Below, piece by piece: positions 12,083-63,764 of a stretch of 64,000 bases of DNA. The notes under the pieces are model-generated. The model worked only from the letters and a program-made list of their open reading frames with translations. It made no database searches and was not told where the DNA came from. A program made the translations under genes and the position numbers. Where the stretch lies: IMG/VR virus record IMGVR_UViG_2904150443_000004, positions 32,001 through 96,000 of that record. One strand, written 5' to 3'. The stretch comes from a virus. Lineage: Duplodnaviria > Caudoviricetes. Each line of letters opens with the position of its first letter. The stretch's first letter is position 1.

Positions 12083-14193
12083 ATGGTTCTAGAAACAATA
12101 AAAAAAGTGAATGCAAGTGATGTGTTCCTTCCCCTCATTACTGAGGGGGAGGAGGATGCAAATAACTATAATAATGGAGGAGTTAAAATGAACAAATCAA
12201 AAAGAGAAAGAAAGTTTAAAATTGGTGATGATGTTATTTGGACGAATTCAAATGGAGTGAATCTTGGTAAGCGAAAAATTATAGGATATGATACAAGGTC
12301 AGGTGAAACATATTTTGAATATACTTATTACATTGACCCAATTGATACACCTTGGTTTTCCATTGGTGAAAGTGAATTAAAGTTGTGTAATCCTTTAAAG
12401 CAAGAAAAAAACTAGAATATTCTGAATGGAGGAATAAAAAATGCTGGTAGTTGATGCGAGTTTGTGGGGCGACTGGGACGAAATGTTCAAATATATACGA
12501 CAATTTAAAGATAAATGTAAAATTACAATTGTGAATGCTTCATATTTGTTAGAGGTTATGTATGGTGAAGAGTTAAGGGAATTAGGATTTATCAAATAAA
12601 ATTAACATTCACTACGAAAGGACAGTGATTTTAATGAATAAGTTGAAGAAGAAAGTTATAAAACTACTTGAATCAAATGGGTACGATCTTGAAGTAGAAG
12701 GCCATATAATTTATACACCAAATTGTACAATTGAGATTCGTAATGATCAGATAACCGTTAATGAACAACCAATTGACTATAACAGTGATATTGATGAAAT
12801 ATATTACGCAGTTGCTGAAGTAGAGGGGTAGTAAGCAAATCAAATTTTAATTATATTCGAACTTGGAGGAATCGGAATGGCAATAGAAAATGTGTATGTA
12901 CAATTAGAAATTAATAAAGACACTGATGCAGTCCATATTGATAAGATGTTCTTAGCTCCAGATCTACAAGAGAATTATAACTATGACTTGAATTTGCACA
13001 AAGGTTATTCATGGGCTGATAAATTTGAAGTATTAGAAGGATATGAGTTGAAATTTATTTTACTAAAGGATGTAAATTATGACGGAAGAAAACGTAAAAT
13101 TACAGATAGCGATATTAAAATTAAATTGTCTGAATTAAATTTAGCTCAAATTCCCAAAGAACCATCGATGTTTGGATATTCGGCTAAGGCTACAGAGAAA
13201 TTAAAAGAATTAGTTTTAAACAACTTAGAAAAACGTAAACAGTTAATAGGTGAAGGTAAAATAATTAATTTAAAAGATATTGCATAATCAAATGAAATGT
13301 TATTTCAATATGATACGGAGGAATAAATATGGCGCGATTTAATGGAGTTGAGTTAACAGACGAATCAATTCAGAAAACTAGAAAATGGTTTGCCGATAAT
13401 GCAATAGCGTGTATCGAGGAAGTCAAAAGTGGAAAACAAAATGTAAATGATAGTGAAGCGTATTTTTCGTGGAGAAATGATCAAGCAAGAGAATACAAAG
13501 AAGGTCACAGTGATCACACTTTAACATTCTTGCAACGTGCATATTTTATTCAAAGTGGAGAATGCATAGCATTATTGCCTCAAACTATCAAACAGACAAT
13601 GAAATGTTACTTTCATATAAATAAAATAATAATTAAAGTATAATAAATATATTGACTTTATATTTATAAAGTTATATAATAATAATATAAAGAAAACACT
13701 CATATACATAGAGGAGGCTGTAATAAATGGGGAAATTGCAATTTATCGAAAAAGCAAATGTTGAATTATTATATGGGCGTGGAGTTGTAGAAAGAAAAAT
13801 ATTTGAATATGAAGATAAGGCGATTTTTAAACATATGGGATCATGGCACTTTTGTAAAAAGGTGGATGGAAAATGGAAGAAATATGAGATTAAAGTAGAT
13901 CAATACAGAATTTTAAAGCCTAAAGTTTAAGACGGATGGAGGATTTATTGAGCTGCTACTAATATATAGGAGGAATAACAATGGATTTCAAATTAGCTGT
14001 AAAATCATTGCCTGAAGGTGTTTCATATGACCCTATGGAACACACTTCAATATATGATTTAATATATTTGGTACAACATGAGTTAGATCTAATTGAGGAA
14101 GAGCCAGAACATTATAATCATTTATCAGTAAGGGAACTAAATAATCTTAAAATTAATTGCGGAAAATTTATAAGGAAATATCTATTATGTTGA
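12083..14193 (+). other. Run of small hypothetical phage genes (12083/12188, unlisted 12441-12599, 12625, 12877, 13329, 13727, 13981)
   Basis: Co-oriented short ORFs with GGAGG-type RBSs. Confidence 0.7.
13652..13680 (+). promoter_or_regulatory. SigA promoter with CTTTA-N6-TAAAG operator
   Basis: TTGACT-17 bp-TATAAT; palindrome at 13656-13671. Confidence 0.8.
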
Positions 14194-14350
14194 AATACTG
14201 TTTTCATTAATTCGATATATTACAAAAAATCAATAGTATTTATTGCTTATATTATAACGATTATGTGTTGAAATCTATTAGGTCATATGGTAATATATTC
14301 CTAGAAATACACAATCCAATACATCATACTATTTTGTAGGAGCGTGTAGA

Positions 14351-14788
14351 ATGAAAAAGAAAGTAGTTTTATTCCTTACTGTTTTAACTCTGACTGCCCT
14401 TCCAACAAGTGTTTTTGCTCAAAGTGTGACTTCATACAATCCACTCAAGAATGTATTCAATCAAAAATATTCACCACTCGCTTATGAATCAAAATCAGGT
14501 GTGTTGCCAAGCAGCGGAGAAGTTGAATATTCAATCGATTACAGTTCTGAAGATGGTGCCCACCTCAGAGTATATTTAGGGGATGACGATAAAAAGGGAA
14601 TGAAATTGGTAGTTTACGATCCGAGCAATAAAGTATTTGCTTCTGGAGAAACAAAATCAAGCAATAGCTATCAAGTAACGTTGGAAACAAAGCCAACAAA
14701 GGAAGGAACATATAGAATTAAGATCGTATCTAACGATGGTGACGGTGGATGGGATTACGGTTACACTTCCGCAGCTAGAGTGTATTAG
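14351..14788 (+). CDS. Secreted beta-sandwich (PPC-like) protein
   Basis: Signal peptide ending VFA; EGTYRIKIVS motif; followed by its own terminator. Confidence 0.65.
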   Translation: MKKKVVLFLTVLTLTALPTSVFAQSVTSYNPLKNVFNQKYSPLAYESKSGVLPSSGEVEYSIDYSSEDGAHLRVYLGDDDKKGMKLVVYDPSNKVFASGETKSSNSYQVTLETKPTKEGTYRIKIVSNDGDGGWDYGYTSAARVY

Positions 14789-14849
14789 TTAAAAGTTAAA
14801 ACATTCTACTAAAGAAGAGATAGCAACGGAATTAAACATATTGTACATG

Positions 14850-16174: not shown

Positions 16175-16335
16175 TCTATACAGTCAAATATCAATTTATA
16201 CTTAGGGTATGAAATAGTTCTTTTATAAGAAAATAATGGTTGACGCACATACGACATTGTGATAAATTGGATTTAGTAAGTCGTACATACGACAAATGCC
16301 AAGATATCAAATGATGATGAGAGGATGAAGAGAAT

Positions 16336-16691: not shown

Positions 16692-16752
16692 AAACTCATT
16701 CTTTGCTTCACCTTTTATAAAATAAAATATATGATCAATAACAAAATATATA

Positions 16753-20945: not shown

Positions 20946-22461
20946 GTGATAGAAATGAGTAATCAGCTGAAGGATTTTTATGAAACAAATGCTTTTGAGT
21001 GTCCAACAACTAAAGCGCTAATCAAAGGTGTATATTTTCCGAGTTTAAATGAATTAAAATTTAGAGTGAACGAAAAAACAGAAGAAACCGACTGGGAGAC
21101 ACTAAAATGGCGCTTGAAAGCAGAAATTAGAATTTTAGGTGGCCTTAAGGCTGCAAACGATCATCTAGAAAAACTAGGATTGAATGTAGCGGAAATTAAT
21201 TTTAACTAAATTACTGTTTTATTTTAGAAAGGAGAGGTATCGATGAAATTGTTTTATGCCTATCATGAAAAGTACATAGAGGATTTTGGAGTTTACGCAG
21301 TTAAAAGCTCAGATGAGTTAATGGAAATTTTAGCAAAGGAAGAAAACAAGGAAGTTACATATGTGCGACAAAATTATATTTACGGTGAAATGACGCAATA
21401 TATAAATGAGAGAACAGGAAAGAAATATAAAGTTGTTCTTGAAGAAGTATAAGGTAAACAATGAAAAGGTTATCGGATATCGGAGGTGCATTAAATGAGA
21501 GTATTTATGATTGATGGAGAAAAATACACTACTTTCGAATACGGAATGTACATGCTAGATAAGACCTTTTCTGAAGGTAATGGGATTCTTGATCCTAAAG
21601 TAATGACGCATGATGAAATATCTGCATGGGGATTAGGATTCATTCTTGTTCAATTAAGTGAACGTGATGATATTGAAGAAATTGTATCATAAAAGGGTTA
21701 TTTCATAGGGTAAAATTAAAAGAGATTGGAGAGCTAATAAATGAATGTTTATGAACTCATTTGGTTACATGGCAAGAAAGAATTTGTTATTGGAAATGAT
21801 ATCTCAGATGCCATAAATAATGCAGGAATCGGCAGAGGAGCTTTACAAGCACTGGACTATTGGAAAGAGGTCAGCGAGTTACCAGATCATTTGAAGAAGT
21901 TTGAAATCGTATCTGACAATGGAACCACTGATGAAATTTTTAATCCAAGCTTCATAAATAAGTTGAATGAAACGAGTTTTGAAGTTGGTTCTATCACTGA
22001 GATAAAACTAAGTACCCTGATATTCAAATATCAATTTATTGGTAAGTCAAAAACTGGATATCAATATAAGCAAATAGCATCATGATTCTAAATGAAATGA
22101 CTGTTTGATGGGAGGACTTACATTGAAAGCGAAAGTATTTGTGGATGAAGGGACAGGCTTATGTCAAGAACAGAAAGATATACTCACTAGAAGATATGAA
22201 TCATATGTGACTTACGCGGTACCTTTGATTGTTAACTATGAAGACATGATCATTCTCGACCAAAATTTAGATTTAACTGAAACACTTGATTATGTTTTTG
22301 CTTGTTCAAATGTTAAGTTTCTTAATTTCTTTATGGTTAGATTGGCTAAAGAAGCTGGAAGACAAATTGCAAACAGTAGATTTGTTAATGTCAACACTCC
22401 TATAGGGGTATGCGCTTTTGTTCATGACGAAAAAAATGATCAATGGACATTGGTGAATTAA
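20946..22461 (+). other. Small hypothetical genes (20946, 21243, 21495, 21741, 22105)
   Basis: Short co-oriented ORFs, several separated by the 16-bp boundary motif. Confidence 0.7.
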
Positions 22462-22978: not shown

Positions 22979-23752
22979 ATGAAAGGAAATAATAATATGA
23001 ATATACATATTCCTATTGATTGGGGAAGTTATATTATTTCTATTCCACTGATATTGGCGACAGTGTGGGCAGGCTTAAGGTTCTTGGCAAAAAAATATGT
23101 TGAACAAGAGTTCTCTAAAAGAATAGAAAATCACAAACACGATTTGAATTTATTAGTAGAGGCCAATAAATTTGATATTCAAAGAAAGATGTATGATTTC
23201 AATTTGTATACGACTAAAAGGCACGAAACATATATGAAGTTGTATAATTTATTTTTAGAAGCATCAAGCCGAGTAAGTAGATTTCAAGGGATCAGGCAAA
23301 TACCAGATTTTAAAAATTTCTCAAATGAAGTAATAGCGGAATATTTAAGACGTTTTAATCTGTCAGAAAGTGAATGGTTAACTATTGCTGAAAACTGGAA
23401 TAACGGAACAGATCCATACTTAGTTAAAAAAGTAGAGAGTTATTACAATATAAACGAAGTTAGGGAAATGGAGGCCGCTTATGTAAAAGCTAAAAACGAA
23501 TATTTATTAACTCGTTTATACTTGTCAAAGAAAGTAGAAAGCATATGCTTGATCTTATCTTCAAAATTGACAGAAGCTTTACTTGAGCTAGAAGAAATAT
23601 ACGATATAAACTATATTGAACAAGATATTAATTTAACCGAGTCACGAAAAAACTTAAGAAAAATACACGATGATATTAATTTGCATAGTCTAGAGTTAAA
23701 AGATGAAATGCAAAAAGAATTGTCAATTGGATATTACGACAATACAAAATAA
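22979..23752 (+). CDS. Membrane-anchored hypothetical protein
   Basis: Single N-terminal TM helix plus coiled coil; stop codon lies in the boundary motif. Confidence 0.7.
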   Translation: MKGNNNMNIHIPIDWGSYIISIPLILATVWAGLRFLAKKYVEQEFSKRIENHKHDLNLLVEANKFDIQRKMYDFNLYTTKRHETYMKLYNLFLEASSRVSRFQGIRQIPDFKNFSNEVIAEYLRRFNLSESEWLTIAENWNNGTDPYLVKKVESYYNINEVREMEAAYVKAKNEYLLTRLYLSKKVESICLILSSKLTEALLELEEIYDINYIEQDINLTESRKNLRKIHDDINLHSLELKDEMQKELSIGYYDNTK

Positions 23753-23812
23753 AAGACATGTTTCATTATATATAAAATCACATAATTTAGATTATGTTCC
23801 CTTTATGTTCGG

Positions 23813-27124: not shown

Positions 27125-29038
27125 ATGAAACTATGTTTTTATAAGGAGAAAAATGAGGAGTGCAAAATGACAGGTGAGAACTTTAAAAGAATAAATCGTA
27201 AAAATTCAGAAGTTGAAAAACTTAAAGAGGAACTAGAAAACGCAAGAGTAGCATTCACTAATTATAGTAAAGCACCTGATGAAGACAGTTGGAGTTTTGA
27301 TGAGTTGTACAGGCTTCAAAATACTGTTATTAATTCAGAATATAATTTATACTGTGCTAGGTATGAAGATAACAGAAGAAGAAACTGGAGATAAAAGATT
27401 ATTTAGAGAGGTGTAAAATGAGACTGCGGAACAAACTTATTAAAACTGTTGCCCAAAGTGAAGAATTAAGAAGTAAATTTTCTCTATATTCTACTTATAA
27501 AGAACCTGATATTGATAGAACTAGATTTGTACTAACTGATTCAACTGATATTGTAATATGCAATGAAGAAGAAATTAATAACTATTTAAGTGCAGGATTC
27601 AGTATTTTTGGTTCAGCACAGTCTAATGAAGAAGTAGATGCAATTATTTCGAGAGCTGAAGTATCTTAACATGAAGCATTCAAAAGGAGACTGATAATTA
27701 TGGAATCGGCGTTGAACTTGTTTGGAATAGAAATTTTGAATTGCATATCTTATGATTTCACTGAAGATGGGATTCAATACAATAGCGTGACGTTTTGTAT
27801 TAGCTCTCTAAAAAAATACGATGGCCTGTGTGTTGAAGTAAATCATGATTGGAAAATAAGAATTTGGAGTGTGTTAGGGGAAATTGTTAAAGAATTTTAC
27901 ATAATCGAGAACGAAGAGTTTAAGAGATTGCTTTATAGTAAATATCCTTTGAAATAATATTAAAAAAGGTGGTGGAAATGTGAGCAAGAATAATTTTGAA
28001 GTGGGTAAGAAAGTATATTTGTCACTAGGAATTAACAAAAGTAGATATAGTAGTGTGGATTATGTTGAAGGTGAAGTAACAAAAGTAGGTAGAAAGTATG
28101 TCACTGTTAAAATAGGGATTACCCAATATCAGTTTGATCTCACAGATAATCTAAGACAAAAGACGGATTACGCAGAAGATTACTATCTCTACGAATCCCT
28201 AGAAGAATTGTTAGATGAAAAAAGAAGAGAAGAATTAGCTCGACATTTGAGCGTGTATTTCTCAGGCTCCTATAATATAAAGAACAAGCTAACGTTAGAT
28301 CAAATGCAGCGAATCAAGGATATTATTTCTGAATAAAATGATCCTTTCAAGAGGTGATTGGTATGAAATTTAATTTTGAAGATTCAGAAGAATTAAAGCC
28401 AGTTTCGTGGATCGATGTTTGGTATGACAGAAGACAGAGACTATGGACAGCGATACTAAAGAATGATGATGATTTTCAAATAGGTGATGCTGAATATGGT
28501 TCAAAAAGTGATATAGGAGCTATAGTGGAATCTTGGATTAACGAATATGAATTAGATAGAACATACATCTCAAAAAAACAAATCCAACAAAAGAAAAGAC
28601 ACTGAGATTAATCACAGCATTTTAGATGAAATGAATATTTGATGGGGAGTGAGTAATGTGGATTATAAGTTTCGTATAGTAAGCACAATGGAGATTACAG
28701 GTGAAGTGGACAATGAACAGTATCAGATTAATGAAGGGGAAGAGTTAATTATTCAGTCTCAATCAATTGATAAATTAAAGTGGTTCGTATTTATTCCATC
28801 TATTGAAAAGTTTGATTACATAGAAAAGTATAAGATTGATTTACTAATTACAGATTACATATTCTATCCGCAATATTACGGAGAATTTCAATTGCCAGTG
28901 ATTAGTGATAACATCCACACTTACGCATTTATCACCCCTAGTGGATATGTTCAATGTGCATCAAAGAAAGATATAATCGAATTAAAATCATACAAGGAGG
29001 TACAGCGAATTAGCAGTGATGAGATTCGATTTAAATAA
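27125..29038 (+). other. Small hypothetical genes (27167, 27418, 27700, 27980 beta-barrel-like, 28354, 28649)
   Basis: Co-oriented ORFs with RBSs and boundary motifs. Confidence 0.7.
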
Positions 29039-30515: not shown

Positions 30516-30589
30516 AAGTAAATGCTTCTATGATATATAGAGCAAATGAAAGGATTCTTTTACTTGAAATGAAAAAACGGGGGAGTTAG

Positions 30590-30820: not shown

Positions 30821-33419
30821 AAGAAATTCTTTATCAAGAATTAGAGGTAACAAGAGAAAAAGTAGTGAGACACAGGGAAAAATATTATGCAAAAGAGATT
30901 ACGTCTTTTGAGCAGCTAAACGAACTTAATAATAGAGCAGAAGTTGCTATCATGAACAATTGTAATATGGTTGTAGGCCGAATTATGTATAGAGAAAAAA
31001 ATTGGATATTGATTGATGTAGTAACTGGGACTGTTTCAGTAAATGAAGATAGTTTTAGGCATGGTAATTTTATGTATGAACTTGAACTATATTAAAAAAT
31101 GGATCTATTACAGGAGGTAAAAATGAGCGTAAGAACTACATATGATGAAAAGAGAGACATACTGAAGAAAACATTACAAGAGTGCTTAGAGCAAGCAAGG
31201 GAACTTCTTGATGAAGATATCTGGGGCTATGAAGAGATGAGAGAGGGATATGCTTTAGATGTGTATGTAGCGGTGAAAAAAGCGAAGGATACAGTCTAAT
31301 TAAAGTTGTAATAAAAGATGTTCAAAGAAAAGGGTGATACATTTGGGTTGGAAAATCAAATTTATTGAGAATTTTGAGGATTATAAAATAGGAGATACAT
31401 TAGAGTGTGATGAAATGGGCTTACCATTGTTTTATTGCGGCATGATGAAAGTGGCAATACGAATAGAATAAGAAAATGAAAGAAGTATTTTATAACAAAA
31501 GGAGTTGCTAATCGATATGAATAGATTAAATTATTATAGTGATAACGATGAAATGACTTTAGATGAAGAAATGTTGTACAATCAGGCATTAAGCACAGTA
31601 AAGATCATTGAAGAAAACGTGAGATTAAGAAGGGAAAATAAGAGACTTATGAACAAAGTCGCTGACAATGAAGAGTGGACTAATCAACAGTTACAAGAAA
31701 ATATTAAGTATGCTGGTAATCTACTTGACTCACTTATTAAGAAATCGGATACTAAGTAAAATATGTGTATTATGAAGTAAATTCCGTTATAGGAGGGCTA
31801 ATATGGACAGATATCTTAATACAATCATGAATCGACTTGCAAATATTATTCATAATGAATCGCAACATCCCAGCAAAGAGAGTTGTAATCTTATTATTGA
31901 TTCATTGTCTCGATTAGTCAAAGAATACAACGAAGAATTTGATAGAAACATTGACGTTACGGATTATAGAAAAAAGAACATGAAGTAAGTCTTTCACGGG
32001 AGGTTGTCATTTGAGGACGATAACTGAAGCTCAATATAAAAGGATTCTGAATATGTATAACGATACAGTAGATAAGGAAGTAAGTGCAATGACCACAGTG
32101 TTATCTTCGTGGGGGAGAAATTCGGAAATTGATAAACTACATATTAATGCTGAAGCTAAGAAAGAAAGTTTTAAAAACATATTTAATTGAATTAATTCAA
32201 ACAGAATTGAGGATTGAAACTATGAAATCTAAAATATTTAAAAGTGAAAATGGATTGGAGTTATTAGTTAAAAATAGAAAATCAGCAGTAATTTTAGAAA
32301 TGAATCCAAGCCAGATGGACTCTAAGTATAAAGTTGAATTTAAATTTAATTCTAGAGATTTTGACGAATTATATAGTTATATCGATACCGCTGCAAATGA
32401 GTCATGGGACATTATCATTTCCAAAGAAGCAAGTAGTTTAGGGTCTGACTATTATGAGTACTACGATAAGGAACTTGATAGCAATGGATATCTTTGTATT
32501 CGAGAAAATACGATAGTTATTAATAGGCCATCATTAGAAAGTAATAAGCTATATCAATTCAACAAAAGAAAGATGGAGTCTTTCGCTTACGATTTTAGAA
32601 AATCAGTTGCTAACAAAATGGTGTGATGAAATTAATGAATATGTAAAGAGTATGAAATCTGATTTTCATTGGAGGAATAAAATATGAAAGCTAACCAAAT
32701 GACTGTTTATGTGGAGTACAAAGGCTCAGAGGTGCGTGTAGAAGTTCCTTGTTCTCAAGACACTCAGTATTATGAAGCACAGGTAAAAGCTCTTAGAATG
32801 CTTTCTAATTCGTTTAAGGAGGTTGATGCAGCATGACGACTTATACATATCGTTTCATTGAGAAGGACTATTTTCGTTCCATAATAAAAGGAAATTCTGA
32901 TTTTCTTGCGGATAATGAAATTGATGAACTCTTAAGTGAGCAAAGAACATGGGAAGATGTAACGATAAAAATAAAAGAAACAAATTTCAGATTAAATACA
33001 GTGTTCATTGATAATATCACTGATGAGGTTATTGAATTTGAGGATATATCAAAGGCTGCTCAGATTTACGCAGAAAATATATTAAGGAAATTACGCAAGA
33101 GCAGGGTGAAATCATTACTCGGCAAAGACTCAACAAGTATTGCTATTGTCTGAAAAGATTCAAAACAAATATAGGAGTGATATTAATGGCGAAATATAGT
33201 TCTGGAGATAAATTCGCGTTGAAAAGTGATCTAAATCGCTCATCTATAATCGAAATAGTTTTTGTTCCACCTATTGATGGACGTGGAATTCAATATTATC
33301 TAATGAGAACAGGAGGAGGAGTAAATACCATAAAAGGAATAGAACATTTATATAAAGAAAGTGAAATTGATGAGCTTTTTATTCTAGTCAAACAGAAGAA
33401 AGAAGGAGAGCCTAATTAA
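30817..33419 (+). other. Small hypothetical genes (30817, 31099, 31505, 31803, 32129/32222, 32833, 33177)
   Basis: Co-oriented ORFs with RBSs and boundary motifs. Confidence 0.65.
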
Positions 33420-34229: not shown

Positions 34230-34453
34230 AAGTCTGATTTCATGACAGAAAAAGAGGAGAGAAATATGGTTAACTGGGCATCTGAAGATACAAAATTGGA
34301 ATTTTTAGAGGGTTATATTATCAAAGAATTTCTATGGAACGAAGTAGGTGACAGGATCACAATTAAACTTACTTCTGGGGATATTGTTGAAATCTATAAC
34401 GAGAGAATAACCTTTAATGGGAATGAAGTAGTCAATGGAAAAGTAATGAATAG

Positions 34454-34822: not shown

Positions 34823-35095
34823 TATTAATGTGGGGGGGAGAGCAGTGAGATACAGAAGAAGATATCTTATTTCATGGACTTGTAATGGCAACAATGGAAG
34901 AGATCATTGGGTAATGGAGAGAAACGGAAAATTATCCGCTGCCGACATAAAGAGACTGGAAAAAGATCTATCTAATAAATGGGGTTTAAGTAGACCAGTG
35001 ATTATTACAAACTACATACAAATCAATTAAAGATAAGATGAAACACGGATTTCATAACACTAATATTATAATTAAAAAAAAATGGAGATGTAGTA

Positions 35096-38764: not shown

Positions 38765-38784
38765 ATTTCATAACTCATTACAAC

Positions 38785-43481: not shown

Positions 43482-43490
43482 GGCATTTTA

Positions 43491-45254: not shown

Positions 45255-45411
45255 TCAAAATGGAGGAGGTTTGTCTAATGGTGAACTTTCTCCATTAAAA
45301 AAATAAAATATAAAAAACCATTGACATTAGATAGTGTGATTTGATAAATTAATCTCAGAAGTTAATACATAAGCAGTAATGAAAGATAGATTTCATAGTA
45401 AGTTAATCAAT

Positions 45412-47998: not shown

Positions 47999-48470
47999 GG
48001 CTATGAAAGAGATATTTCGTAGCGGAGGTGAGAAGTGTGCTATCTTATCCAATAACAGGCGGACATACATTCAAAATTAATGAAGACAAGTCTAATCATA
48101 ATCATGGTTTGATGTTTACTCATAAGAACGAAATGATTTTAAGTAAGGAACAAGCGGAAAAGTTGTTAACAATTAATTTAGGGGGCTGTAATTTGGAATC
48201 ACTGTATCATGTAATCGTAATAACGCAAAATAGTGAAATTTTGATTGATAAAAAAGTAGTTTCAAAATCAGAGGAAACGGCTAAGTTTAAGGTTGGGGCT
48301 TATGCTTGTCTTGAAGATAATAAACTAACGCCTGATGATGTAACAATTATCGTTAAAAATCTAGGCAGTGTCAAAGTAGTAGATAAATAATACATAAGAG
48401 TCACAGTCCCAGAGATTACATTACAGTTGCAAGTCTCTGGGACTATTAATTAGTATCTTAGGAGGGAATC

Positions 48471-50259: not shown

Positions 50260-50332
50260 GATTTATATCATGATAAAGAAGTCAGACAGGTAAGCGATAA
50301 AAGGAATGTTTCATTAATAAAGAGGTGTTCAT

Positions 50333-51319
50333 TTGAAATTTCCTGATGAGTGTATTTGTGCCATTAAATATAATTTGAATACAATTAAAACAGTAGAACG
50401 CAGAACAGAATACTTTTCATTCATTGAAAGACAGGAATTCATTAAAGAGTATTATCGACTTAAAAAGGCATGGTACGCAAGTGATGTTAAAGCATATTAT
50501 GCAGAGTTGAAAGAGATGATCGATGTCAATCAAATGTTGACTTCGATTTAGAAAATTATAAAAAGGAGAATGTTCATGCCTAGATCAAGAACGTATAAGC
50601 TGTTTCATTCGTGTGAGGAAGAAGAGAGTAAAATCTATTTTAAAACTACTATGAAAGATGAATACTTGATAAAGCTTATTAAAATCTGGTTGCTGCGTCT
50701 TTCAAATATTGTCCAAGAATATGACTTCGGAACAGATGAGATGATGAAAATCCTTGAGACATTCAATTGTGTGCAGGTTAATGAAAAAGATGTTAGAACT
50801 TACTATGAGGCCAATTTGTATGATATCTGGGAGTATGCGAACACATGGTATTCTGATGAGGAGGTTTACAGTCCTGAGTTTACTAATCCAGAAGCAGAGA
50901 AAGTATTTAAGCTAGTAGTTAAACGCAATGAAGAATGGTATGGAAAGCTTAGATGTGAAGAAAATAATTCAACACGCAAAAAATTGTGGGAAGAATTATG
51001 GAAAGATATTTGTACTAATGAAGATGGCACATTAAATCTTGAGCAGATTCAACGAGAGCTTGCCGATTTACATTATATGATAGAGCATGTTCCTAAAGTA
51101 TACAGTGCAGTAACAGGGGACACATTATCTAAGCCAACTTATGCCTCAAAAACGGTTATTAGATTCTATGAAAATCACTTAAATGAAGTGGTAAAAGATA
51201 GGTTTGATGAGGTAATTACTGCTCTTGAAGAAAAGTGGAATAACGCAGATTTAGATGGTGAGGATGGAATTGCTGAAGGGCTTACGTATGCTATTGACTT
51301 GATTGAAAATTATAAATGA
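50333..51319 (+). other. Two hypothetical genes (50333-50551, 50570-51319)
   Basis: RBS-preceded ORFs upstream of the PAPS reductase. Confidence 0.65.
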
Positions 51320-52882: not shown

Positions 52883-52906
52883 GGAATACAATAAAAACAA
52901 TATTTC

Positions 52907-54365
52907 ATGAGCCAATCACGAAAGGTGGGGTTTGGAGAAATGAAAATCCATGGAGATGCTAGTGATAATGAAATAAGTATTGAAATTGGAGATATTATTT
53001 CCATAGGAAGCAGTTACTATCTAATTGCTTGGAACTTAAAAGAGTTCCAAAGTGTAAATGGATATCATCATGACGGAATTCGATTAGTTAATTTATCTAC
53101 TAGTACAGTAACAGAGCAGCGTTACGGCAGTATTAGTGAGCTAAAAAGTATCTTGCTTCGTGAAGATAGAAAAGTTGTGATATATGATGGTGAGAGTGTA
53201 GAAATGATTTTATCTAGAAAATAAAAAGTTAAAACTATACATATAAATGATGAAATATAGATTTTAAAGGGTGATACTATGAATTTCAATAATAAGATGA
53301 ATAAACTCAGGGAAGAAATTGAGTTGAAACAGCGTGAGTTAGATATATTGGAAAAGGATAATTTTAATCCATTAGGAAAGTGGAGAATTAGCACCGAGGG
53401 AGATTGTGAAGGTCGTTCTAAGAAACAGCTTGGGGATTATACAGGTAATTTACTTGATATTGTAAAACAATTGAGTAATCAAGCATTCTATTCTCTAGAC
53501 TGTGAGAGAGTTGAGTATTTACATACAGAACATAAAAAGGAGAGTAAGGAGGTTCATTTTAGGGTTATAGATAAAAGCATAAAACTGTTTGATAAAGATG
53601 AGCAATTACGTAAGTTGTTACCACATGTTTCCGAAGGTCATTCTTTAAGTCATGGTTATTATTTTGGCGCTGTGAAGTTGGAATGGGAAGAAAAGTGAAA
53701 CCTAATCTATTCTAAAAGGAGAAGTGATAATTATCGGTAAAACTATTTGTAAGTTTATTGCTTATACATTAATTGGCGTTATTCTTTATTTCTCGATATT
53801 CATGCCTGAACTATCAATTACTTTAACTGGTGGTTTTGCATGGGCTGCTGTTCTATTATCTTATGGTTTTGGATTTATTCTTGTCTACATTGGTTTGTTT
53901 GGAGGAGAGTTCACTTACAGCTCTAAAGGTATTAAGGGTTGGATTAAGGAAATGAGAAAAAGAAACCAAAAATAAATAATAAAAACATGTAAGGGGATTT
54001 ATGAAATGAATAAACGAGATCTTGATATTGATCTTGTAATATGCAATGCTGCAACTCCTTTGCCATGGTTTGTACACAACACTCAGCTTGGAAGATGCCA
54101 TACGTACACCAGCATTGACGGTGTATTAACGATGGTAGCAGAAGATGCTCATACAGCAGATGCAATATTCATTGCGGCAGCACGCGAAGGTTGGCCTGAA
54201 GCCATTAGCAGAGCAATATCAGCTGAAAGAGAGGTAGATAGGCTCCAAAAGGCATTACATGAGATCAACGATCATATAAGAGGCACATCTAATCCAATAT
54301 CATATATTGTAGAAACACTACATCAGACATTGCCAGAATACATAGAAAAAGCACCTGAATTTTAA
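52907..54365 (+). other. Hypothetical genes (52907, 53279, 53724 membrane, 54006 Ead/Ea22-like)
   Basis: 54006 has AATPLPW...ADAIFIAAAREGWP; boundary motifs between genes. Confidence 0.65.
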
Positions 54366-54399
54366 CATGTAATGAAAGCATCCTTTCATGGGATAGGAG

Positions 54400-55056: not shown

Positions 55057-55894
55057 GGAGGATGAAAGAATGTCAAAAAAATATAAATATTATCAAATAG
55101 GGTTTGCCGAAAGAGAGTCTGATATAAAATTAATTGATGACATTGTAACTTTCTTTGGAAGTGTTGAAGTAATAAAAGAAATTGAAAACTCAGGTAGACA
55201 GAATCTTTGGTCAACATCGAAATTTTATCATCTCGCTTACTCTCTATTTTTCTTTTCGATTAGGGAAAGGTATTGCGATGCAGCAAGACATAAAGAAGCT
55301 GTAAAATATAAAAAATCAAGTGAACTTGAGAATTTACCAATATTAATAGTATAGGATCATAGTGGATAGGAGATGGAAATGACAATTAACATTAATAAAC
55401 CAAGTTGCTACGAATTAAAGTTATTCATTACAAAAGGCACATTACTTATTGCTAATACAAGCGAGTTCGATTTAACAGAGGGTAGGATATATGCAGCCAT
55501 GAGAAACCAAGGAGATAGCACTTTCGGTGATTGCATCTTCATTAAGAATAACAAGGGTAATGTAGAAGATTATACATTAGAGAACTTTTGTCTATACGAA
55601 GGGGAAATAGTATCACAATAACTTCAAAAATATCTAAACTACTTCTATCAACGGAATAAAACATATCTTTCATGCAGTGATTAAAATATTTGAGCTAATC
55701 TTCATGATGATGCTAATCATTGCTAGGGGAGTATGTTGATGAAAAATTTTAAAAGTAAAAGATGATACAAAGACGTTCGAGCATAATTGGAATCGAAGAA
55801 AGATGCAAATAGAGTTTGGGATAAGGTTGATGATTGGTTAGACATCTTACAGTAAAAATAAAATAGACCGTCACAATGGACGGTCTGCCCTGAA

Positions 55895-56197: not shown

Positions 56198-56408
56198 GAA
56201 AATAACCTCCTTTTACTGGTATACGTTCAATAGCAGTCTAACATACTATAAAAAGGAAATCAATGAAATAATAGACATCTATGGGGTTCCTTACTTCTTA
56301 ATCACATGTGGAGAATAAAGAGTAGAGAGAGTTTAAAAGATTGGTCATTTAGGGGAGTTATTATTAGCTAGAATAAAATCAAATCAAATTTTTATGAGGT
56401 GATATTAA

Positions 56409-58582
56409 ATGAACTTTGATCTTGTGTATCTTGAACCGCTTAGTATTCATGCTTATAGAAGACCTGATTGTGGAATTCCACTGGTTACAGGAGTGTACTT
56501 TATTGAACCAGATGAACACCTTGAAGGTAGACTGTGTTATGAAGTAACCTATGAAGATGGATACAAAGATTATGTAACTAAGAGTGATGTAGATGAGGGG
56601 AAATACAGATTTTTAGTTAAATAAAATATATATAACTACTATATATTATACTTATGGAGGAAAAAATTGAAAAAATTTATTTGTGAAGTAGTTAAAAAAG
56701 ATAGGTATGAAATTGAAATCGATGATCAAATGTTAGATGAGGACTGGATGGAGCGTTTTAATTTCTGTAATAGGCTTGAATACGACTGTCTTGAAGAACA
56801 TGCAGTACGCATCTCTAAACATATGTCAAAAAGTTATGACAGTTATATTGATGGATATGGATACCCTCTTATCAATGGGCATAAGCACTATGCTGCGTTT
56901 GATTATCAAGTTGAATCTGGTATAAATATCAAGATTCTCAATGATGAGGATGATATTGAAGTAGATGTTTTTGAGATATAAAATTACGTTTTTATCATAC
57001 ATAAGGAGGAATCTGTTATGGGGATTATTGATAAATTTAAGGGTTGGTTTGGTAAGAAGGAGATGGAGAGTGCTATTGATAGCATCAATATGGAAAAAGC
57101 GAAACAAGATATCAGTGATGCTGCAAGCAGACTTATTGAAGCGTTCGGAACTCTTTCAAAGAGTATGGAATATCAAATGAATAACAAAGATATTTGTGAA
57201 CATGGAAATGAAATTGAACGCTTGACTAAGATTATGAGCAACACAAAAAACAAAAGAATTAAAAAGAAATTGTTGAAGAGAATCGAGATTCTTAAAGAAA
57301 GTGGGTTCTAAAAAAGTGAATAATATAAATATTGAAAAGGTGTTTGTAAATCAGTTTGGCTCGAAAAAATGGTTCGAAGTTCATTTTAAGTATGATGAAC
57401 AAACTATCAGTATTAATCTTGACCTTGAGGAAATGAAAAAGCTAGGAGTAACAAAGTCTTTGAATGGTACAAAAAAGCTAAGAGAATGGCTAATGTCTGA
57501 TAAAGGCTATGACTATATTAAACGCAGTATGAAATAACTATTTCAAAGGAGATTAAATGCAATTTTATATACCATTATGGGCAATTCCAGTTATTGGCAC
57601 TGTTATTATTGTTGGGATTATTTCAATTTGGAAGGTGCTAAGAAAACCTTTAGGTTAAATTATATGAAATTAAATAAAATAAATATATGAGGTGATAAAA
57701 TGAGTATGCAATATGGAGCTGACGATAAGAGCAAAGTTGGAGAGTTAGTTCAAAAATTATTGGATTCATGGCCTTATGATGATGAATACTTGAAGATTCG
57801 AGTACATTATTCGGATGGATCTTGGTTTGTAACACGAGACCATAAATAAGTAGGTTATAAATTCTTGATTTTATAAAAAAGACAGCCTCACCGTAGCAAG
57901 ACCGCCTTAACCAAATCTATTTAATTGATAAGCAATGACCATTGCCACTCGAAGTCAAAGTGATTGCGAAGAATCCACTTATTTGTATCTTCGAGATCGC
58001 CTGAACAACTATTACCTGAACTACATAAAAAATAAACAGGTTTATCAAACTGCTCTGAGATCGAGTTTCTAATAATAAAGTAACTATCAGGATTTTTTTC
58101 AAGCTTCCAAGATAACATTACTACTACAAATTCTTTTTTCACAAAGTATTTAAATTGCATAATATCACTCCTTTCAAGAATTATTTTAAGAGGGCTCTCC
58201 TCTTTAAGCTAATTATGCAGAAAAATATGAGATTAAAGTAAGAAAATCGGTTCTACCTTGTTCAATAAAATTTTAAAAAAGGAGATTCAAAATTATGAAT
58301 GAAATCAAAATCAAACGTGAACTGCTAGAAAAGTATGGGCTACCTGATTGTGGAATCAATGGAGTGAAACTTATTAGAGATGATATTACAGACAATTCAA
58401 GATGGTCAATTCACCATGAAATAATTTTCAAGTGGACTGATGGGAAATTCTATAGAGCGTATTATTCTGTAGGTGCAACAGAATCACAAGATGAGGCTCC
58501 ATGGGAATACGAGGATGAAGTCGAATGTGTAGAGGTGTATCAAGTTGAGAAGATGGTCAAAGTTTGGGAAGATGTTTTATAA
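56409..58582 (+). other. Small hypothetical genes (56409, 56667, 57018, 57301, 58295; 57921-58160 on the - strand)
   Basis: RBS-preceded ORFs with boundary motifs. Confidence 0.65.
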
Positions 58583-58610
58583 ATATCTAATGAAATAGGA
58601 ATTTGATAAG

Positions 58611-59016: not shown

Positions 59017-60252
59017 ATGAAGAAGCGGATTATTATGCTTGTGGATATGCAATCATTTTACGCAAGTGTTGAAAAGGCGATGCAACCACAATATAAGGAC
59101 ATGCCATTAATTGTTGCAGGAGATCCAGCTAGAAGATCTGGAATTGTTCTTGCTGCATGTCCAATAGCAAAGAGCTACGGAATTTCAACCGCAGATAGAC
59201 TTTGGGAGGCACTTAATAAGTGTCCTGACGTTGTAGTTATTCAACCTCATCTGCAACAATATATAGACGTTTCCATGCAAATTACGACGATCCTAGAAAC
59301 GTACACTGATTTGGTGGAACCGTATTCGATAGATGAACAGTTCATTGATGTAACGAACTCCATTCATCTCTTTAATATGACTCCCGAAGAATTGGCTGCT
59401 GACATTCAGCAACAGATACTACATCAGACAGGAGTATGGGCTAGAGCAGGAATCGGAGAAAACAAGATCATCGCTAAAATGTGTTGTGACATGCTGGCGA
59501 AGAAAAATAAATCAGGAATCTTCACTTTAAGAAAAGACGAGTTAGACAAGCATCTCTGGCAAAAGCCAGTTGAAGATATGTGGGGCGTAGGCTCCCGAAT
59601 GAAACGGCACTTTTATCGTATGGGAATTAGAACGATAGGAGATTTAGCCAGAACCCCACTCCCTAAGTTAACGAAAAAATGGGGCGTTAACGGTCAAGTT
59701 TTATGGCAGTGTTCGAATGGAATCGATAATTCTCCCGTTACAAAGGATTCACATAGTGGGCAAAAGGTTATTGGTAATGGTATGACTCTTCCAAGAGATT
59801 ACGCTGAGGTTTGGGAAATAAACGTGGTAATCATGGATATGGTTAATCAAGTTTGCAGAAGGTGCAGACAAAAGAAGGTAAGAGGTTCTGTCTTAAATGT
59901 GAGCTGCATGGGAGCTGATTGGGATCATCCAACAGGATTCAATCGACAGATTAAACTAATGGATGCCACCAATGTAACTACAACAGTATATAAAGCAGCG
60001 GTTGACTTATTCCATAAATTTTGGGATGGTGAACCAATTAGACGGATTGGAGTATCAATGTCTGGATTAGAAAGTGATGAAGTATATCAATTAACACTTT
60101 TCGATGATCAGGTTAAAAATAGAAAGATTGATCAAGTTATGGATGCGGTAAGAGATAAGTTTGGAGAGACATCAATAGCATGGGCAAGCACATTTACCTC
60201 AGCAGGACAGACAATGGATCGTGCATCTAAGATTGGGGGTCATTATAAATGA
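59017..60252 (+). CDS. dinB: Y-family DNA polymerase (DinB/UvrX/PolY2-like)
   Basis: VDMQSFYASVE, YSIDE and WGVG motifs; C-terminal IGGH. Confidence 0.95.
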   Translation: MKKRIIMLVDMQSFYASVEKAMQPQYKDMPLIVAGDPARRSGIVLAACPIAKSYGISTADRLWEALNKCPDVVVIQPHLQQYIDVSMQITTILETYTDLVEPYSIDEQFIDVTNSIHLFNMTPEELAADIQQQILHQTGVWARAGIGENKIIAKMCCDMLAKKNKSGIFTLRKDELDKHLWQKPVEDMWGVGSRMKRHFYRMGIRTIGDLARTPLPKLTKKWGVNGQVLWQCSNGIDNSPVTKDSHSGQKVIGNGMTLPRDYAEVWEINVVIMDMVNQVCRRCRQKKVRGSVLNVSCMGADWDHPTGFNRQIKLMDATNVTTTVYKAAVDLFHKFWDGEPIRRIGVSMSGLESDEVYQLTLFDDQVKNRKIDQVMDAVRDKFGETSIAWASTFTSAGQTMDRASKIGGHYK

Positions 60253-60578: not shown

Positions 60579-60793
60579 GGCACTAAATTGTGCTCTTTCT
60601 TATTTTATATAAATAAAATATTGACTGTTTCATATTGATAATGATATTCTTTGAATAGATAAATGTTGGAAATATGTGAGTGGAGTATAAGCATAAATCT
60701 TTCATTTATCTTTCTTTAATTGTTTGGTTAATTCTGTGAATTGGAGATATAATTACAATAGAGTAAAAAGCCATTTCACAGGAGGTTGATAGA

Positions 60794-63732
60794 GTGTATA
60801 ACAATATGATAGTTACATCGATTTATATTGAAGCACCACCTGTATTAACTGTTTCTACAAACGAACCAAATAAGAAACAAATCGTACATTTAATAGGACG
60901 CATTGCTGATAAAAGAGAAATTGATGGTGAAACAAAATATATAAGCTATGAAGATCTCAAAAATGGAGATAAGTTATATAAGTTTACAGTTGGTGATAAA
61001 CAAGTAATGGTAGTAGTGGAAAGACTCCCGATACTTACTTTCGCTAAGAACTCAGATGAGTATACATTTGATCCTGTAGAAATTCGTAGTTAGCATCATA
61101 ATATATTCACAAATAGGAGGATGTTTATATGAGCCAAAGTCCATTGTATAAAAAGATGATTTCTCTTACTCCAGCTTTAAATGGTGTTATTGAAGTTGCT
61201 TCTGAAGTAAAGCAAGCTAGAGAGGATTTTAATAGAAGGTATCCCAAGGTGACTGGTCACATCGCAGAACATCTAGATGAATATATAAAGGATGAAGATA
61301 TCCGTATTGCTAAGGAAAAATTCATATCTTATATGAACCGACTATCTTACGATGACGTGGTTATTATAGATGCAATAATGCTTGTGGGCAGACAAGAGAA
61401 AGATCCTGAAGAATATATTCAGGCCAAAGTTGAAACTGAAAAAGAAGGATACGAATGGCTTGAGCCGGAAGAAGGTGTTTTTGATTCACCTCAGAAAAAG
61501 GTATTTGATTATTTAAAGTACATAAAGAGCTTAAATACAACTAAAACGGAAATTATCTTCTCGATGATGGAGAAAGCGCCTTTAATCGATTTCTTACAGC
61601 GAGGAATGCATATTCTCGATATTCAAGACAAGACCAGAGTTTAAAGGGGTGAATCCAATGAAAATTATATGTAAAGGTCAAATAAAAGGTTCGTTTCGGG
61701 GCTGGAAAAATAGAGACACGGAATATCAATTTGTAAGCGGCGAGAAGTGGAGGCAAGAAGAATACCATTATCATTATCACTATTCTTACTATCCAAATGC
61801 GAAGGTAATTCAAACAGCAAGAGGTTTCGAAATGCATGTTGATGGATTGAATTTTGGAATGCTTGTTAAGAGAGTGTATTGAAATATCGTTTTTATGGGG
61901 AGAGGTAAAGGTTGAATTGGATATCTAATTCACCAATACAAGACAGAAATGAGCATGGAAAAGATTTGAGGGTTGAAATATTTGATGATCGTTCTGAATT
62001 CCCTGAAGTTGGAGAGGAATACGTCATTTACTGTGAACGTGGATATTTTGAAATTGAACCTACAAGGTATATTTGGGGAGAATTTCAAGGGGAAAAGATG
62101 TATCTCCTTTTGCATAAAGGTGTATTATGATAAAATTGGCATTTTATAAGGAGAAATATATATGACTTACAGCAAACCAAAATGTCACTGTGGTACAGAG
62201 CTGGTACACAGTTTGGAGTATATTTATCGTGAGGATAGAAGAATATCGTTAAATGGACAACCACTGAAAAATAAATGCAACAAACCATTAGAAGATCTTG
62301 TTCCATACGATGATCCTCATGAGTATTTACGATGTCCAGAATGCTATTTCCGATATGAAATGGATTATGATGAGCAAGGAAGGATCATAACAATCGGAGG
62401 TATTAAGCCGCATCCGAATGATACTGGATTAGGATAGGAGAATACATATGAACTATAAAATACCTACATGTACATGCGGTAGTGAACTAATGTTAAGAAT
62501 GCAGCCAGCATTTGAGATTGAGCTTAAACCATTAAAAAACGGAAGATATCCAAATATCAAAAAGAAGGATATCAATCTTTCTAAGATAATTCCTGATAAC
62601 TATCCAGAATGGCTTCAGTGTCCAAATTGCGACACCGAATACGAGTTTATTCAAGACGAAAAGGGCATGGTAAAAGATATTTGGAAAAGATAATAAAATG
62701 GGGATTTGATGAAGCTCATAGTTCTAAAGGAGAGATCATATTAATGCCAGAGTTCTTTTCGGAATTATTTTCAACAGAAAATATAATTAAAATGATAACG
62801 ACAGGACTTCCCACATTGCTAATTGCTCTACTAGTTCCCTTATATTCTGTAAGGGTTGCCTTAAAGCAATTTTATAGTCAGAAATGGTGGGAAACAAAAG
62901 CTAAAGCATATTTTGAAATCATTGAAAATTTATCTACTTTAGAATATATCTACGGAGAGTATTTTGAACATTATGTGATGAACAGTATTAAATTTTCAGA
63001 CGAAAAAATAAACAGTTTCTATGAGATACAAGTTAAGGCTCTTTCTGAAATAAAAAAGTATTCGGCTATGGGTAATTACATTATCTCCAATGAAGTGTCT
63101 GAGGTATTGAAAAATCTATTGAGAGAGCTAGATTATAGACACAAAGAAGGTAACTGGTTTGAAGACATAGAACATCATCATGGAGCCATTATTGAATGTT
63201 TAAAACTGACAAAAGAGAGCGCTAAAAGTGATTTGAATAGAAGAAAGATGAAATAATACTTTTATAACCGAAAGGGGACGAGCAAAGTGAATGTTTTTGA
63301 GGCATTTAATTTGATGAATGCAGGTCACATAGTAAAGGATGACTATGGTTATTGGTTTAAAAAAGATGATAATCAACTAATTGATTCTATAGATGAAGGA
63401 AAGACATGGCACCCAACGGAAGAATTTAAGTATGGTTACATTAATCAAAAATGGCATTTAGTTAAATGAAGATAAAACAATTCATTTATTTGGAGGTGTT
63501 ATGAAAAATGGACGGTCTCGAATCATGTAGTTATTGTAAACCGAAAAACGCGAAAACATTGCTTGCAGGTAAAGCAGCGTATATGTCAGCATGGGTACAA
63601 ATTTATACTAATGATAGTGATGTAAGATTGGGATTGAGCGCAAAAGGAGAAAGTGATATTGGAAATTCAGTTGAGATTTTTTACTGTCCAATGTGCGGTA
63701 GAAAATTAAGTGGCAAGAACAAAACGAAATGA
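60794..63732 (+). other. Small hypothetical genes including a DUF3775-like protein (61129), zinc-finger proteins (62162, 62448, 63508) and a membrane protein (about 62743-63256)
   Basis: CxC/CxxC pairs; boundary motifs at 61880, 62131, 62694, 63249, 63473 and 63725. Confidence 0.65.
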
Positions 63733-63764
63733 GTATTTTATTTGAACTGAGGGAGGAATGTGAA

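Follow-up and report, generated by a model that had tools for sequence, protein, structure and literature searches.

Dyad-symmetric DNA sites at the gene junctions of a distant SPbeta relative: candidate docking sites for a phage protein and, in the SPbeta family, preferred joints of gene-block exchange

The attC sites of integrons are imperfect palindromes of 57–141 bp, which fold as single strands and carry paired R''/L'' and L'/R' boxes. The stoperators of cluster A mycobacteriophages often touch stop or start codons and have been proposed to halt elongating RNA polymerase in the lysogen, and T4-type phages reportedly possess promoter-early stem-loop (PeSL) cassettes, said to have been described by Arbiol et al. 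in 2010. Here we analyze an 18-bp palindrome, A-T[G/A]AAA-N6-TTT[C/T]A-T, which recurs along a 64-kb stretch of phage DNA with a GC content of 33% (henceforth "the window": bases 32001–96000 of the 146,367-bp record IMGVR_UViG_2904150443_000004). An earlier note, made from the letters of the window, had interpreted the repeats as an integron-like array of gene cassettes or, alternatively, as operators of an integrase-fold repressor. Our analysis identifies the palindrome as a real, phage-specific, dyad-symmetric DNA site, and comparison of Bacillus phage SPbeta with its relatives reveals that in the SPbeta family it is a preferred joint, though not the sole one, for in-register exchange of gene blocks.

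A search of the window for T[GA]AAA-N6-TTT[CTG]A yields 69 strand matches at 38 distinct sites (Table 1), while none of 100 dinucleotide-preserving shuffles of the window reaches this number (expectation 8.25 ± 3.42, maximum 17); the earlier count of at least 33 copies, with few expected by chance, was thus sound. In an unbiased survey of 5-mer inverted repeats with gaps of 0–12, TGAAA-N6-TTTCA ranks first (9 observed vs. 0.5 expected), and counts of TRAAA-Nx-TTTYA in the whole 146-kb phage for x from 2 to 10 are 1, 7, 6, 3, 62, 6, 7, 4 and 7. The conserved unit extends to 18 bp, with an A before the left arm in 34 of the 38 sites and a T after the right arm in 29, and the first and last core positions of these sites show weak symmetric preferences. 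The conserved arms measure 6–7 bp in the window phage; in the SPbeta family the symmetry reaches approximately 11-6-11. The three copies quoted as examples by the earlier note (at 32653, 35039 and 54373) read as given there, and its remark that all 6-bp cores differ is true for 62 of 62 copies in the whole phage, a fact that carries no evidential weight because chance alone would give less than one duplicate pair.

The sites bracket 1–3 genes and fill the rightward small-gene arm, about 44 to 140 kb of the phage; palindromes are sparse in the leftward structural arm. According to a crude gene call, at 33 of the 38 sites no more than 62% of the bases are in coding sequence (we refer to these as junction sites), and five sites (13600, 28364, 48249, 51192 and 59600) lie wholly inside open reading frames (ORFs). 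Under a stricter mask (ORFs of at least 50 aa, counted from the first start), 29 of 38 sites are mostly outside ORFs, compared with 15.7% of the stretch that is non-ORF (binomial P = 1.7e-16). Pattern scans found no palindrome in window positions 1–13599 or 40409–45379, the element being absent from the lysogeny-control block, in agreement with the reported absence of copies from the yonJ-yonV and repressor/agr blocks. The other positional claims made from the letters, namely that copies sit between one gene's stop and the next ribosome-binding site, that the left arm supplies the upstream stop codon at ten named sites, and that the stop lies in the core at three more, are likewise upheld by the ORF ends (ten of ten and three of three) and by the enrichment at junctions.

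A repeated element 5' of ribosome-binding sites could in principle work at the level of polycistronic early transcripts, for example by folding into a hairpin, by directing processing or by acting on translation. The proximity of the Shine-Dalgarno (SD) sequence would suit such a role (the crude gene call places the next start codon 4–59 nt after the site in 22 of 38 cases, and three further sites precede ORFs that the gene caller missed). Nevertheless, we consider it very improbable, as the statistics of the element are strand-symmetric. The combinations found at positions 2 and 15 of the 38 sites are A,C (11), G,C (9), G,T (9), G,G (4), A,G (2), A,T (2) and C,T (1), so that A,C, a mismatch in mRNA, is as common as the G,T wobble. 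Watson-Crick compatible arm pairs occur in 11 of 38 sites, which is below the expectation under independence, i.e. the arms do not covary. The median folding energy of the sites as RNA is –0.25 kcal/mol, 37% of them do not fold, and the all-A/T arms of SPbeta and its relatives would fold still more weakly. A hairpin is ruled out by the non-covarying arms, among which A,C mismatches are the commonest, together with the negligible folding energy.

A promoter has also been rejected: the SD sequence often begins a few bases after the site, no promoter can fit at many sites because it follows within 1–12 nt, and the phage's sigma-A-type promoter recurs elsewhere. The latter, ATATTGACTTTA-N17-TATAAT-like, is found at window positions 13649–13660, 16750–16761 and 26905–26916 and also at position 100268 of the whole phage, and several separate sigma-A-like promoters lie inside the arm of small genes. 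A short AATACATAG-like stretch occurs just 5' of the SD sequence in three genes, two of them behind sigma-A-type promoters and the third at approximately 14947. The ATATTGACTTTA-type elements are candidate early promoters, and the AATACATAG-like stretch is a possible operator of the phage's own homologue of MrpR, the SPbeta master repressor.

Protein matches indicate that the phage is a distant relative of SPbeta. A tblastn comparison of window ORFs of at least 40 aa revealed 15 with SPbeta matches at 26–56% aa identity, including YonJ, the HU-like YonN, the YonO RNA polymerase, YopP, YopQ, YopR/MrpR, LigB and the Y-family polymerase. No close relative was found by megablast of 12 kb against the phage collection and none by scanning viral contigs with the YopR homologue; YonO reaches at most 56% identity in phage records and 62% in prokaryote genomes. 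The palindrome itself is widespread and conserved across the SPbeta supergroup. SPbeta has 36 copies, mostly of the form TAAAA-N6-TTTTA (34 observed vs. 2.3 expected). The palindrome tops the inverted-repeat survey in two Paenibacillus prophages (26 vs. 1.3 and 15 vs. 1.0 expected), Psychrobacillus phage Perkons, Geobacillus virus E3 and Bacillus phage PBC2, and the N6 spacing is strict in the window phage, SPbeta, Perkons, E3 and PBC2. Counts of the motif vs. a control pattern are 14 vs. 2 in Clostridium phage c-st, 15 vs. 0 in BUCT082, 10 vs. 0 in a Staphylococcus SPbeta-like phage, 26 vs. 0 in Mammaliicoccus phage phi6255 and 18 vs. 0 in Bacillus phage Nate. Spacing profiles gave no N6 peak in Enterocloster phage PMBT24 (2 copies) and Lactococcus phage PMBT69 (10 copies, not above other spacings).

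The palindrome is restricted to the phages. Two Paenibacillus hosts carry related prophages, and their genomes contain 44 and 34 copies of the 18-mer (the control pattern gives 5 and 8), of which 38 and 25, respectively, lie in or beside the prophage early arm, about 1% of each genome; the possibility of a host regulon was rejected on this ground. A search of viral contigs for exact 18-mers of two window sites gave three matches, one in a related contig of 180 kb, where the flanks are unrelated, and two in unrelated DNA; this number is at chance level. The window phage and its distant kin have nine 16-mers in common vs. 2.7 expected (column-shuffle null, P = 0.002), several of them in opposite orientation or off junctions. 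GC-rich Paenibacillus host DNA also contains CCTGC-N6-GCAGG repeats, tandem and dispersed with a periodicity of approximately 42 bp, which look like REP-type elements and are unrelated to the phage palindrome; this stretch and one of another genome without signal were left out of all counts.

Evidence on exchange was taken from eight SPbeta-family genomes (SPbeta, phi3T, Goe14 and SPbetaL1–L5; for phi3T and Goe14 only the rightward part of the genome), because no close relative of the window phage was found. When SPbeta is compared with phi3T and Goe14, 16 of 68 ends of homology blocks fall within 25 bp of a palindrome centre (about 1.4 at random); for intergenic block ends the figure is 12 of 38, vs. 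3.1 ± 1.6 for random intergenic positions. A breakpoint is present at 9 of 13 palindromic junctions vs. 11 of 65 other junctions (Fisher p = 3.5e-4), and summed over the 28 pairs of the eight genomes, which are not independent, at 109 of 137 vs. 258 of 844. Unique breakpoints within 20 bp of a palindrome centre amount to 14–30% per genome, the corresponding zone being 1.0–1.7% of the genome; 70–86% of breakpoints lie away from palindromes. Homology ends between –12 and +28 relative to the start of the palindrome, usually at its edge and not in the N6 core, and in 18 alignments of SPbeta with phi3T or Goe14, cases in which the entire palindrome goes with the downstream block are about twice as numerous as those in which it goes with the upstream one; a crossover cannot be placed within the palindrome because the arms are identical by definition. 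The check proposed in the earlier note, whether breakpoints between relatives fall in the N6 core, thus has a divided answer in the SPbeta family: palindromic junctions are favoured, usually at the edge of the site.

The eight genomes contain 88 distinct palindromic 16-mers, of which 30 occur in a single genome and 58 in at least two. Among the latter, 45 are flanked by unrelated DNA in different genomes (both flanks are unrelated for 29 of them, just the left one for 10 and just the right one for 6) and the remaining 13 have no unrelated flank, although these classes come from ungapped comparison and are somewhat inflated by small indels; one 16-mer is found with six left and six right contexts in seven genomes. 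The shared 16-mers, 17–27 per pair, follow the same order in all 15 pairs of complete genomes, and none is duplicated within a genome, which chance would predict anyway. Each 16-mer with its own 6-bp centre is therefore a fixed, collinear "address" in the SPbeta family. Of 255 distinct isolated islands of identity of at least 18 nt, 97 contain a palindrome, while palindromes cover 0.85% of the sequence; such islands hug the palindrome (median length about 19 nt), and most of the remaining ones are boxes of two types for SroF, the phi3T counterpart of MrpR (islands were scored at 18 and 20 nt, the control at 14 nt being swamped by chance matches). According to the site list and the annotation, no palindromes are present at the yorF-yorL or nrd junctions of SPbeta. 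Under strict criteria the eight genomes provide one clean deletion between sites, where phi3T has 2,836 bp between two sites and a single site in SPbetaL5 joins the outer flanks. We also inspected four laboratory phi3Ts x SPbeta hybrids, whose recombination sites are listed in Supplementary Table 1 of a preprint (bioRxiv 10.1101/2020.05.06.055103): eight of eight major parent switches fall within stretches of 1.4–18 kb that are identical in both parents, and hence ordinary homologous recombination suffices for them. Matches in two public sequencing sets were confined to contigs, which are uninformative on rare joints; one set is probably the source assembly, and the other gave short pieces of low identity. 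The window phage presumably exhibits the same exchange behaviour as the SPbeta family.

What kind of protein might read the palindrome? The integrase-fold master repressor YopR/MrpR/SroF, proposed as the alternative in the earlier note by analogy with its SPbeta operator SPBRE, appears at first sight attractive, as a YopR-like protein is encoded in ten of ten motif-positive phages and in neither of the two phages without an N6 peak, and three of the ten MrpR-bound promoter regions of SPbeta have a palindrome within 250 bp. We nevertheless regard this as a slim prospect. The ten SPbeta promoters under the ChAP-seq peaks named in PMC10516654 have approximately CAAATACAAAWAATATGTATA in common instead of the palindrome, and ten peaks contrast with 36 palindromes. 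The SroF protein of phi3T binds, as a monomer, a 26-bp asymmetric box (bioRxiv 10.1101/2025.11.27.690993). Boxes similar to SPBRE number 4–8 in SPbeta-type genomes and 0–1 in phi3T-type genomes, while the core of the phi3T-type box is present 5–8 times in the former and in 18–19 plus-strand copies in phi3T, L3 and L5; a multi-copy motif of the SPbeta family, RRAWAAAAATAAAAW, turned out to be the reverse complement of this published core. The opposite counts imply that operator sets switch with the type of repressor, while the palindrome does not change with it. Of 283 palindromes, no more than 11 lie next to a SroF box (7 and 4 for the two types), for which reason a composite site of palindrome and box was also discarded. 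The palindrome is thus distinct from the MrpR/SroF operator, and we expect the window MrpR homologue to use operators of another kind, with a long and asymmetric box.

An agr-like module directly follows the YopQ and YopR genes at window positions 42960–44895 and comprises AgrB (PF04647, 42960–43481), a 220-aa ORF without family match and a weak LytTR match at 44395–44895; comparing the window with SPbeta by tblastn gave no AimR homologue.

SroE and SroF reportedly bind multiple sites, and SroD is reported to be an auxiliary repressor (Brady et al. 2023). Since published operator experiments exclude YopR, the YopQ/SroE-like and YopP/SroD-like proteins are left as candidate readers. SroE is described as a second repressor with an unclear place in the repression model (bioRxiv 10.1101/2025.11.27.690993), and the DndB domain that YopQ contains has been placed in the ParB superfamily (PMC8612738). 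The YopP family profile matches the XerC-like structure 4a8e (E = 1e-10) and also aligns with XerA, XerD and XerH. The catalytic set Arg-Lys-His-Arg-His/Trp-Tyr is intact in the window YopP, including Arg at Arg-II; among 15 homologues, Arg-I and His-II are present in all, His-III and the Tyr nucleophile in 14, and Arg-II is Arg in seven and Lys in eight, including SPbeta's own protein. YopQ-like proteins are encoded in nine of ten motif-positive phages (in PBC2 by profile search only) and in neither phage without N6 peak; in Nate none was found by single-sequence search, misses of this kind being unreliable, as YopQ and the HU-like protein of PBC2 were missed by tblastn and found by profile searches. 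YopP-like proteins are clear in nine of ten and marginal in c-st (E = 7.5e-6), and PMBT69, without the N6 peak, has a strong homologue (E = 3e-69). This co-occurrence appears to fit YopQ (SroE) slightly better than YopP (SroD) as the reader.

With respect to YopQ we also observed that the match in PBC2 is split over two adjacent frames at approximately 53.7–54.0 kb (E = 7.7e-13 and 1.8e-7), either a frameshift or two genes. The window phage encodes, besides its DndB-like YopQ homologue (40521–41858), a protein with a PAPS-reductase domain (51332–52276), and both domains are associated with DNA sulfur modification. The YonO RNA polymerase was rejected as a reader, as E3, PBC2 and Nate carry the motif without a YonO match; moreover, YonO starts a single late operon upstream of yonK (PMC5467207). 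In many phages of the SPbeta family (Goe11, Goe14, SPbetaL3–L7, phi3T and others) the yonO gene was matched as two pieces with at least one ORF between them, annotated as yonO_1 / hypothetical / yonO_2, which suggests an element inserted into the RNA polymerase gene. The 75 yonO loci, of approximately 22 kb, contain too few sites and are too small to be surveyed; they served as leads only.

Our favoured interpretation, to which we give somewhat less than an even chance, is that the palindromes form an array of docking sites or operators, and that exchange is a consequence of their conserved short identity. The element would be a double-stranded docking site with two-fold symmetry, composed of the half-site A-T-R-A-A-A and a centre fixed at 6 bp, most likely read by a phage-encoded protein that binds as a pair; through dozens of sites, a single phage regulator, probably belonging to the conserved sroD/E/F repression module, could act over the full length of the early arm. 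Between neighbouring genes that are otherwise unrelated, the palindromes are the sole conserved short sequences, and every copy retains its own centre; they therefore also act as the preferred joints at which related phages exchange blocks in register. Several points weigh against this interpretation. Protein binding at the palindromes, the identity of the reader and its regulatory effect are inferred. The co-occurrence with YopQ or YopP is weak evidence, because the motif-positive phages have structural and replication genes in common and form one extended lineage, and there are only two negatives; moreover, five of the ten motif-positive phages were scored vs. a reversed-pattern control only, without a spacing profile. 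A pure regulator also leaves unexplained why the sites avoid conserved multi-gene modules and why the layout in the SPbeta family is 11-6-11, the size of dif or lox sites.

These last two features would be accommodated if the palindromes were sites of dedicated exchange, at which the Xer-like YopP binds the arms and swaps strands across the 6-bp centre, in a natural form of the recombinase-mediated cassette exchange used in the laboratory. As only like centres would recombine, co-infecting or resident relatives could swap blocks in register and leave the gene order unscrambled. The symmetric arms around an asymmetric 6-bp spacer are suggestive of such sites, and so are the alignment of YopP with Xer proteins and its largely kept catalytic residues, the crucial ones of which MrpR is reported to lack (PMC10516654), as well as the islands of identity that hug the palindrome far beyond its coverage of the sequence and the prevalence of in-register replacement (45 of 58) over deletion between sites (one event). 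Nonetheless, we judge this reading, the main rival, unlikely: Arg-II is replaced by Lys in more than half of the YopP homologues, a strong YopP occurs in PMBT69 without the peak and a marginal one in c-st with the motif, the conserved arms of the window phage are just 6–7 bp long, no palindrome lies next to the recombinase gene, most breakpoints are elsewhere, and all major parent switches of the laboratory hybrids are in long identical stretches. The broader proposal that phages of the SPbeta supergroup possess a built-in system of "addressed" exchange, with dozens of lox-like sites acted on by YopP strictly in register, is in our opinion likewise rather improbable. To integron-like cassettes, i.e. 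genes captured, excised as circles and reinserted at any site by a core-tolerant recombinase, we give hardly any credence, even though the sites bracket small groups of genes and often overlap stop codons, and the phi3T/SPbetaL5 pair provides one clean case. That case is the only such event in eight genomes under strict criteria, compared with in-register replacement of flanks at 45 of 58 16-mers in the SPbeta family, and free reinsertion would erode the collinearity of the shared addresses. The sites are not attC-like, because they measure 16–18 bp, lack arm covariation and have no stable fold. The recombinase gene at 5228–6256 has no attI-like site beside it, the nearest palindrome being 7.3 kb away (13600); instead of an intI gene, attI and an array under a common promoter, the arm has several separate promoters; and the YopP profile matches IntI4 over positions 220–282 only, Xer proteins being better. 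The integron analogy of the earlier note therefore fails, also with respect to homology breakpoints, which usually lie at an edge of the palindrome and not in the N6 core; its idea of exchange at the sites is supported in part, for the SPbeta family, by the breakpoint preference and the unrelated flanks.

Table 1. Palindromic sites and candidate reader or repressor genes in the window (positions are those of the window)
Feature	Position	Strand	Context
YopP/SroD-like Xer-family tyrosine recombinase, candidate reader/recombinase	5228..6256	+	Pfam PF02899 + PF00589; 29% identity to SPbeta YopP
Palindrome TGAAA-TGTTAC-TTTCA	13600..13615		in 3' end of ORF 13329-13643; 34 nt upstream of sigma-A-like -35 box
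Palindrome	14191..14206		left-arm TGA = stop of ORF 13981-14193
Palindrome	16210..16225		intergenic, minus-strand gene then plus-strand gene
Palindrome	21690..21705		left-arm TAA = stop of ORF 21495-21692
Palindrome, right arm TTTGA	22093..22108		stop-to-SD gap
Palindrome	23750..23765		left-arm TAA = stop of ORF 22979-23752
Palindrome	27126..27141		junction; SD few nt downstream
Palindrome	28334..28349		left-arm TAA = stop of ORF 27980-28336
Pattern match, probably incidental	28364..28379		coding, gene start ATGAAA...
Palindrome, right arm TTTGA	28627..28642		stop-to-SD gap
Palindrome	30547..30562		junction
Palindrome	31477..31492		junction
Palindrome	32653..32668		SD begins 2 nt past flanking T
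Palindrome	34227..34242		left-arm TAA = stop of ORF 33780-34229
Palindrome	35039..35054		junction
Palindrome	36611..36626		junction
Palindrome	36893..36908		left-arm TAA = stop of ORF 36626-36895
Palindrome	38755..38770		core holds stop of ORF 38318-38764
Palindrome	39614..39629		left-arm TGA = stop of ORF ending 39616
Palindrome	40020..40035		left-arm TAA = stop of ORF 39630-40022
Palindrome	40393..40408		last before YopQ/YopR block
YopQ/SroE-like protein, DndB/ParB-superfamily, candidate reader	40521..41858	+	Pfam DndB 1.8e-15; 26% identity to SPbeta YopQ
MrpR/SroF (YopR)-family master repressor homologue	41892..42869	+	Pfam MrpR_N_CB + MrpR_C_cat; PDB 8a0a at 5.4e-28
Palindrome	45380..45395		first after agr-like block
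Pattern match, possibly incidental	48249..48264		within ORF 48028-48390
Palindrome	50298..50313		junction
Pattern match, right arm TTTGA, possibly incidental	51192..51207		within ORF 50570-51319
Palindrome	52892..52907		junction, immediately 5' of ORF 52907-53224
Palindrome	53251..53266		junction 5' of ORF 53279-53698
Palindrome	54373..54388		junction 5' of ORF 54400-55056 (YoqJ-like)
Palindrome	55657..55672		intergenic
Palindrome, left arm TCAAA on + strand	56379..56394		5' of ORF 56409-56624
Palindrome	56979..56994		left-arm TAA = stop of ORF 56667-56981
Palindrome	57530..57545		core holds stop of ORF 57301-57537
Palindrome, right arm TTTGA	58591..58606		stop-to-start gap
Pattern match, probably incidental	59600..59615		within Y-family DNA polymerase gene 59017-60252
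Palindrome	61880..61895		left-arm TGA = stop of ORF 61649-61882
Palindrome	62131..62146		immediately 3' of stop of ORF 61912-62130
Palindrome, right arm TTTGA	62694..62709		immediately 3' of stop of ORF 62448-62693
Palindrome	63249..63264		core holds stop of ORF 62609-63256

Several neighbours of the sites deserve mention. A gene for a PemK/MazF-like toxin (window 26262–26660, Pfam 6.3e-28) is kept in both Paenibacillus prophages. A Myb-like DNA-binding protein encoded on the minus strand at 15704–16174 (Pfam 9.7e-6) has counterparts with 39% identity in both of them and no match in SPbeta. Just beyond the palindrome at 45380, the sequence (...GGACTCATAGCTCAGTGGTAGAGCG..., window approximately 45415–45445) resembles the beginning of a tRNA gene.

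SPbeta has long served as a model phage, and its lysis-lysogeny circuit is being actively studied, yet it carries 36 of these palindromes, and the motif extends to phages of Bacillus, Paenibacillus, Geobacillus, Psychrobacillus, Clostridium, Staphylococcus and Mammaliicoccus. A description of the palindrome was not found in the literature searched, with supplementary tables and some SPbeta papers outside its coverage; literal spellings of the motif matched only an unrelated archaeal paper, and the string "palindrom" has no occurrence in the preprint on SPbeta relatives or in that on hybrid prophages. If the palindrome is the binding site of SroE or SroD, it would fill a gap in the current model of repression; if it is a recombinase site, it would represent a new way for viruses to organize modular evolution. 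For practical work, the motif cleanly marks gene boundaries and identifies members of the phage supergroup, and the fixed addresses can serve as natural landmarks when these large phages are engineered.

Among the known systems, integron attC/attI resembles the arrangement in having gene-sized units bounded by recombinase-type sites, in which the stop codon can lie within the site. PeSL cassettes likewise contain a repeated short element 5' of small accessory genes that marks differences in gene content between relatives; they differ in their early promoter and stable stem-loop, whereas the phage palindrome has no room for a promoter and no stable stem-loop, and each copy has its own conserved centre. 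Cre/loxP with heterospecific spacers and Xer/dif sites, including the pdif modules of Acinetobacter plasmids, provide a geometric parallel: inverted arms surround an asymmetric spacer of 6–8 bp (strictly 6 in the palindrome), only like spacers would recombine, the SPbeta-family layout of 11-6-11 is of dif size, and a Xer-family protein is encoded. In contrast to the unlike XerC and XerD arms, however, the phage arms are symmetric and 6–7 bp long, and the recombinase does not stand out in the co-occurrence profile. SPBRE, the MrpR/YopR/SroF operator, belongs to the same phage family and genome arm, is also dispersed and also involves a protein of the recombinase-fold family, but it is long, asymmetric, monomer-bound, specific to the repressor type and located at promoters in about ten copies per genome.

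The closest working analogies are two. The stoperators of cluster A mycobacteriophages are dozens of repressor sites in short intergenic gaps; they are asymmetric, 13–14 bp long, orientation-dependent and bound by a monomeric immunity repressor, while the phage palindrome is symmetric and the master repressor uses another box. Such stoperators are the subject of PMC9283540. The other analogy is KorB-OB of plasmid RK2, together with ParB-parS and Noc-NBS. The phage sites are 3–5 times more numerous than those of KorB, lie inside operons at stop-to-SD gaps and have a free centre, whereas KorB sites are near promoters, and the likeness lies in the palindrome and an encoded DndB/ParB protein, which is found in nine of ten motif-positive phages vs. 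none of the two without the N6 peak. In RK2 and in the phage alike, short palindromes are dispersed over a mobile genome, and just as a dimer of the ParB superfamily acts on those of RK2 as a global repressor, the YopQ protein with its DndB/ParB domain might act on those of the phage.

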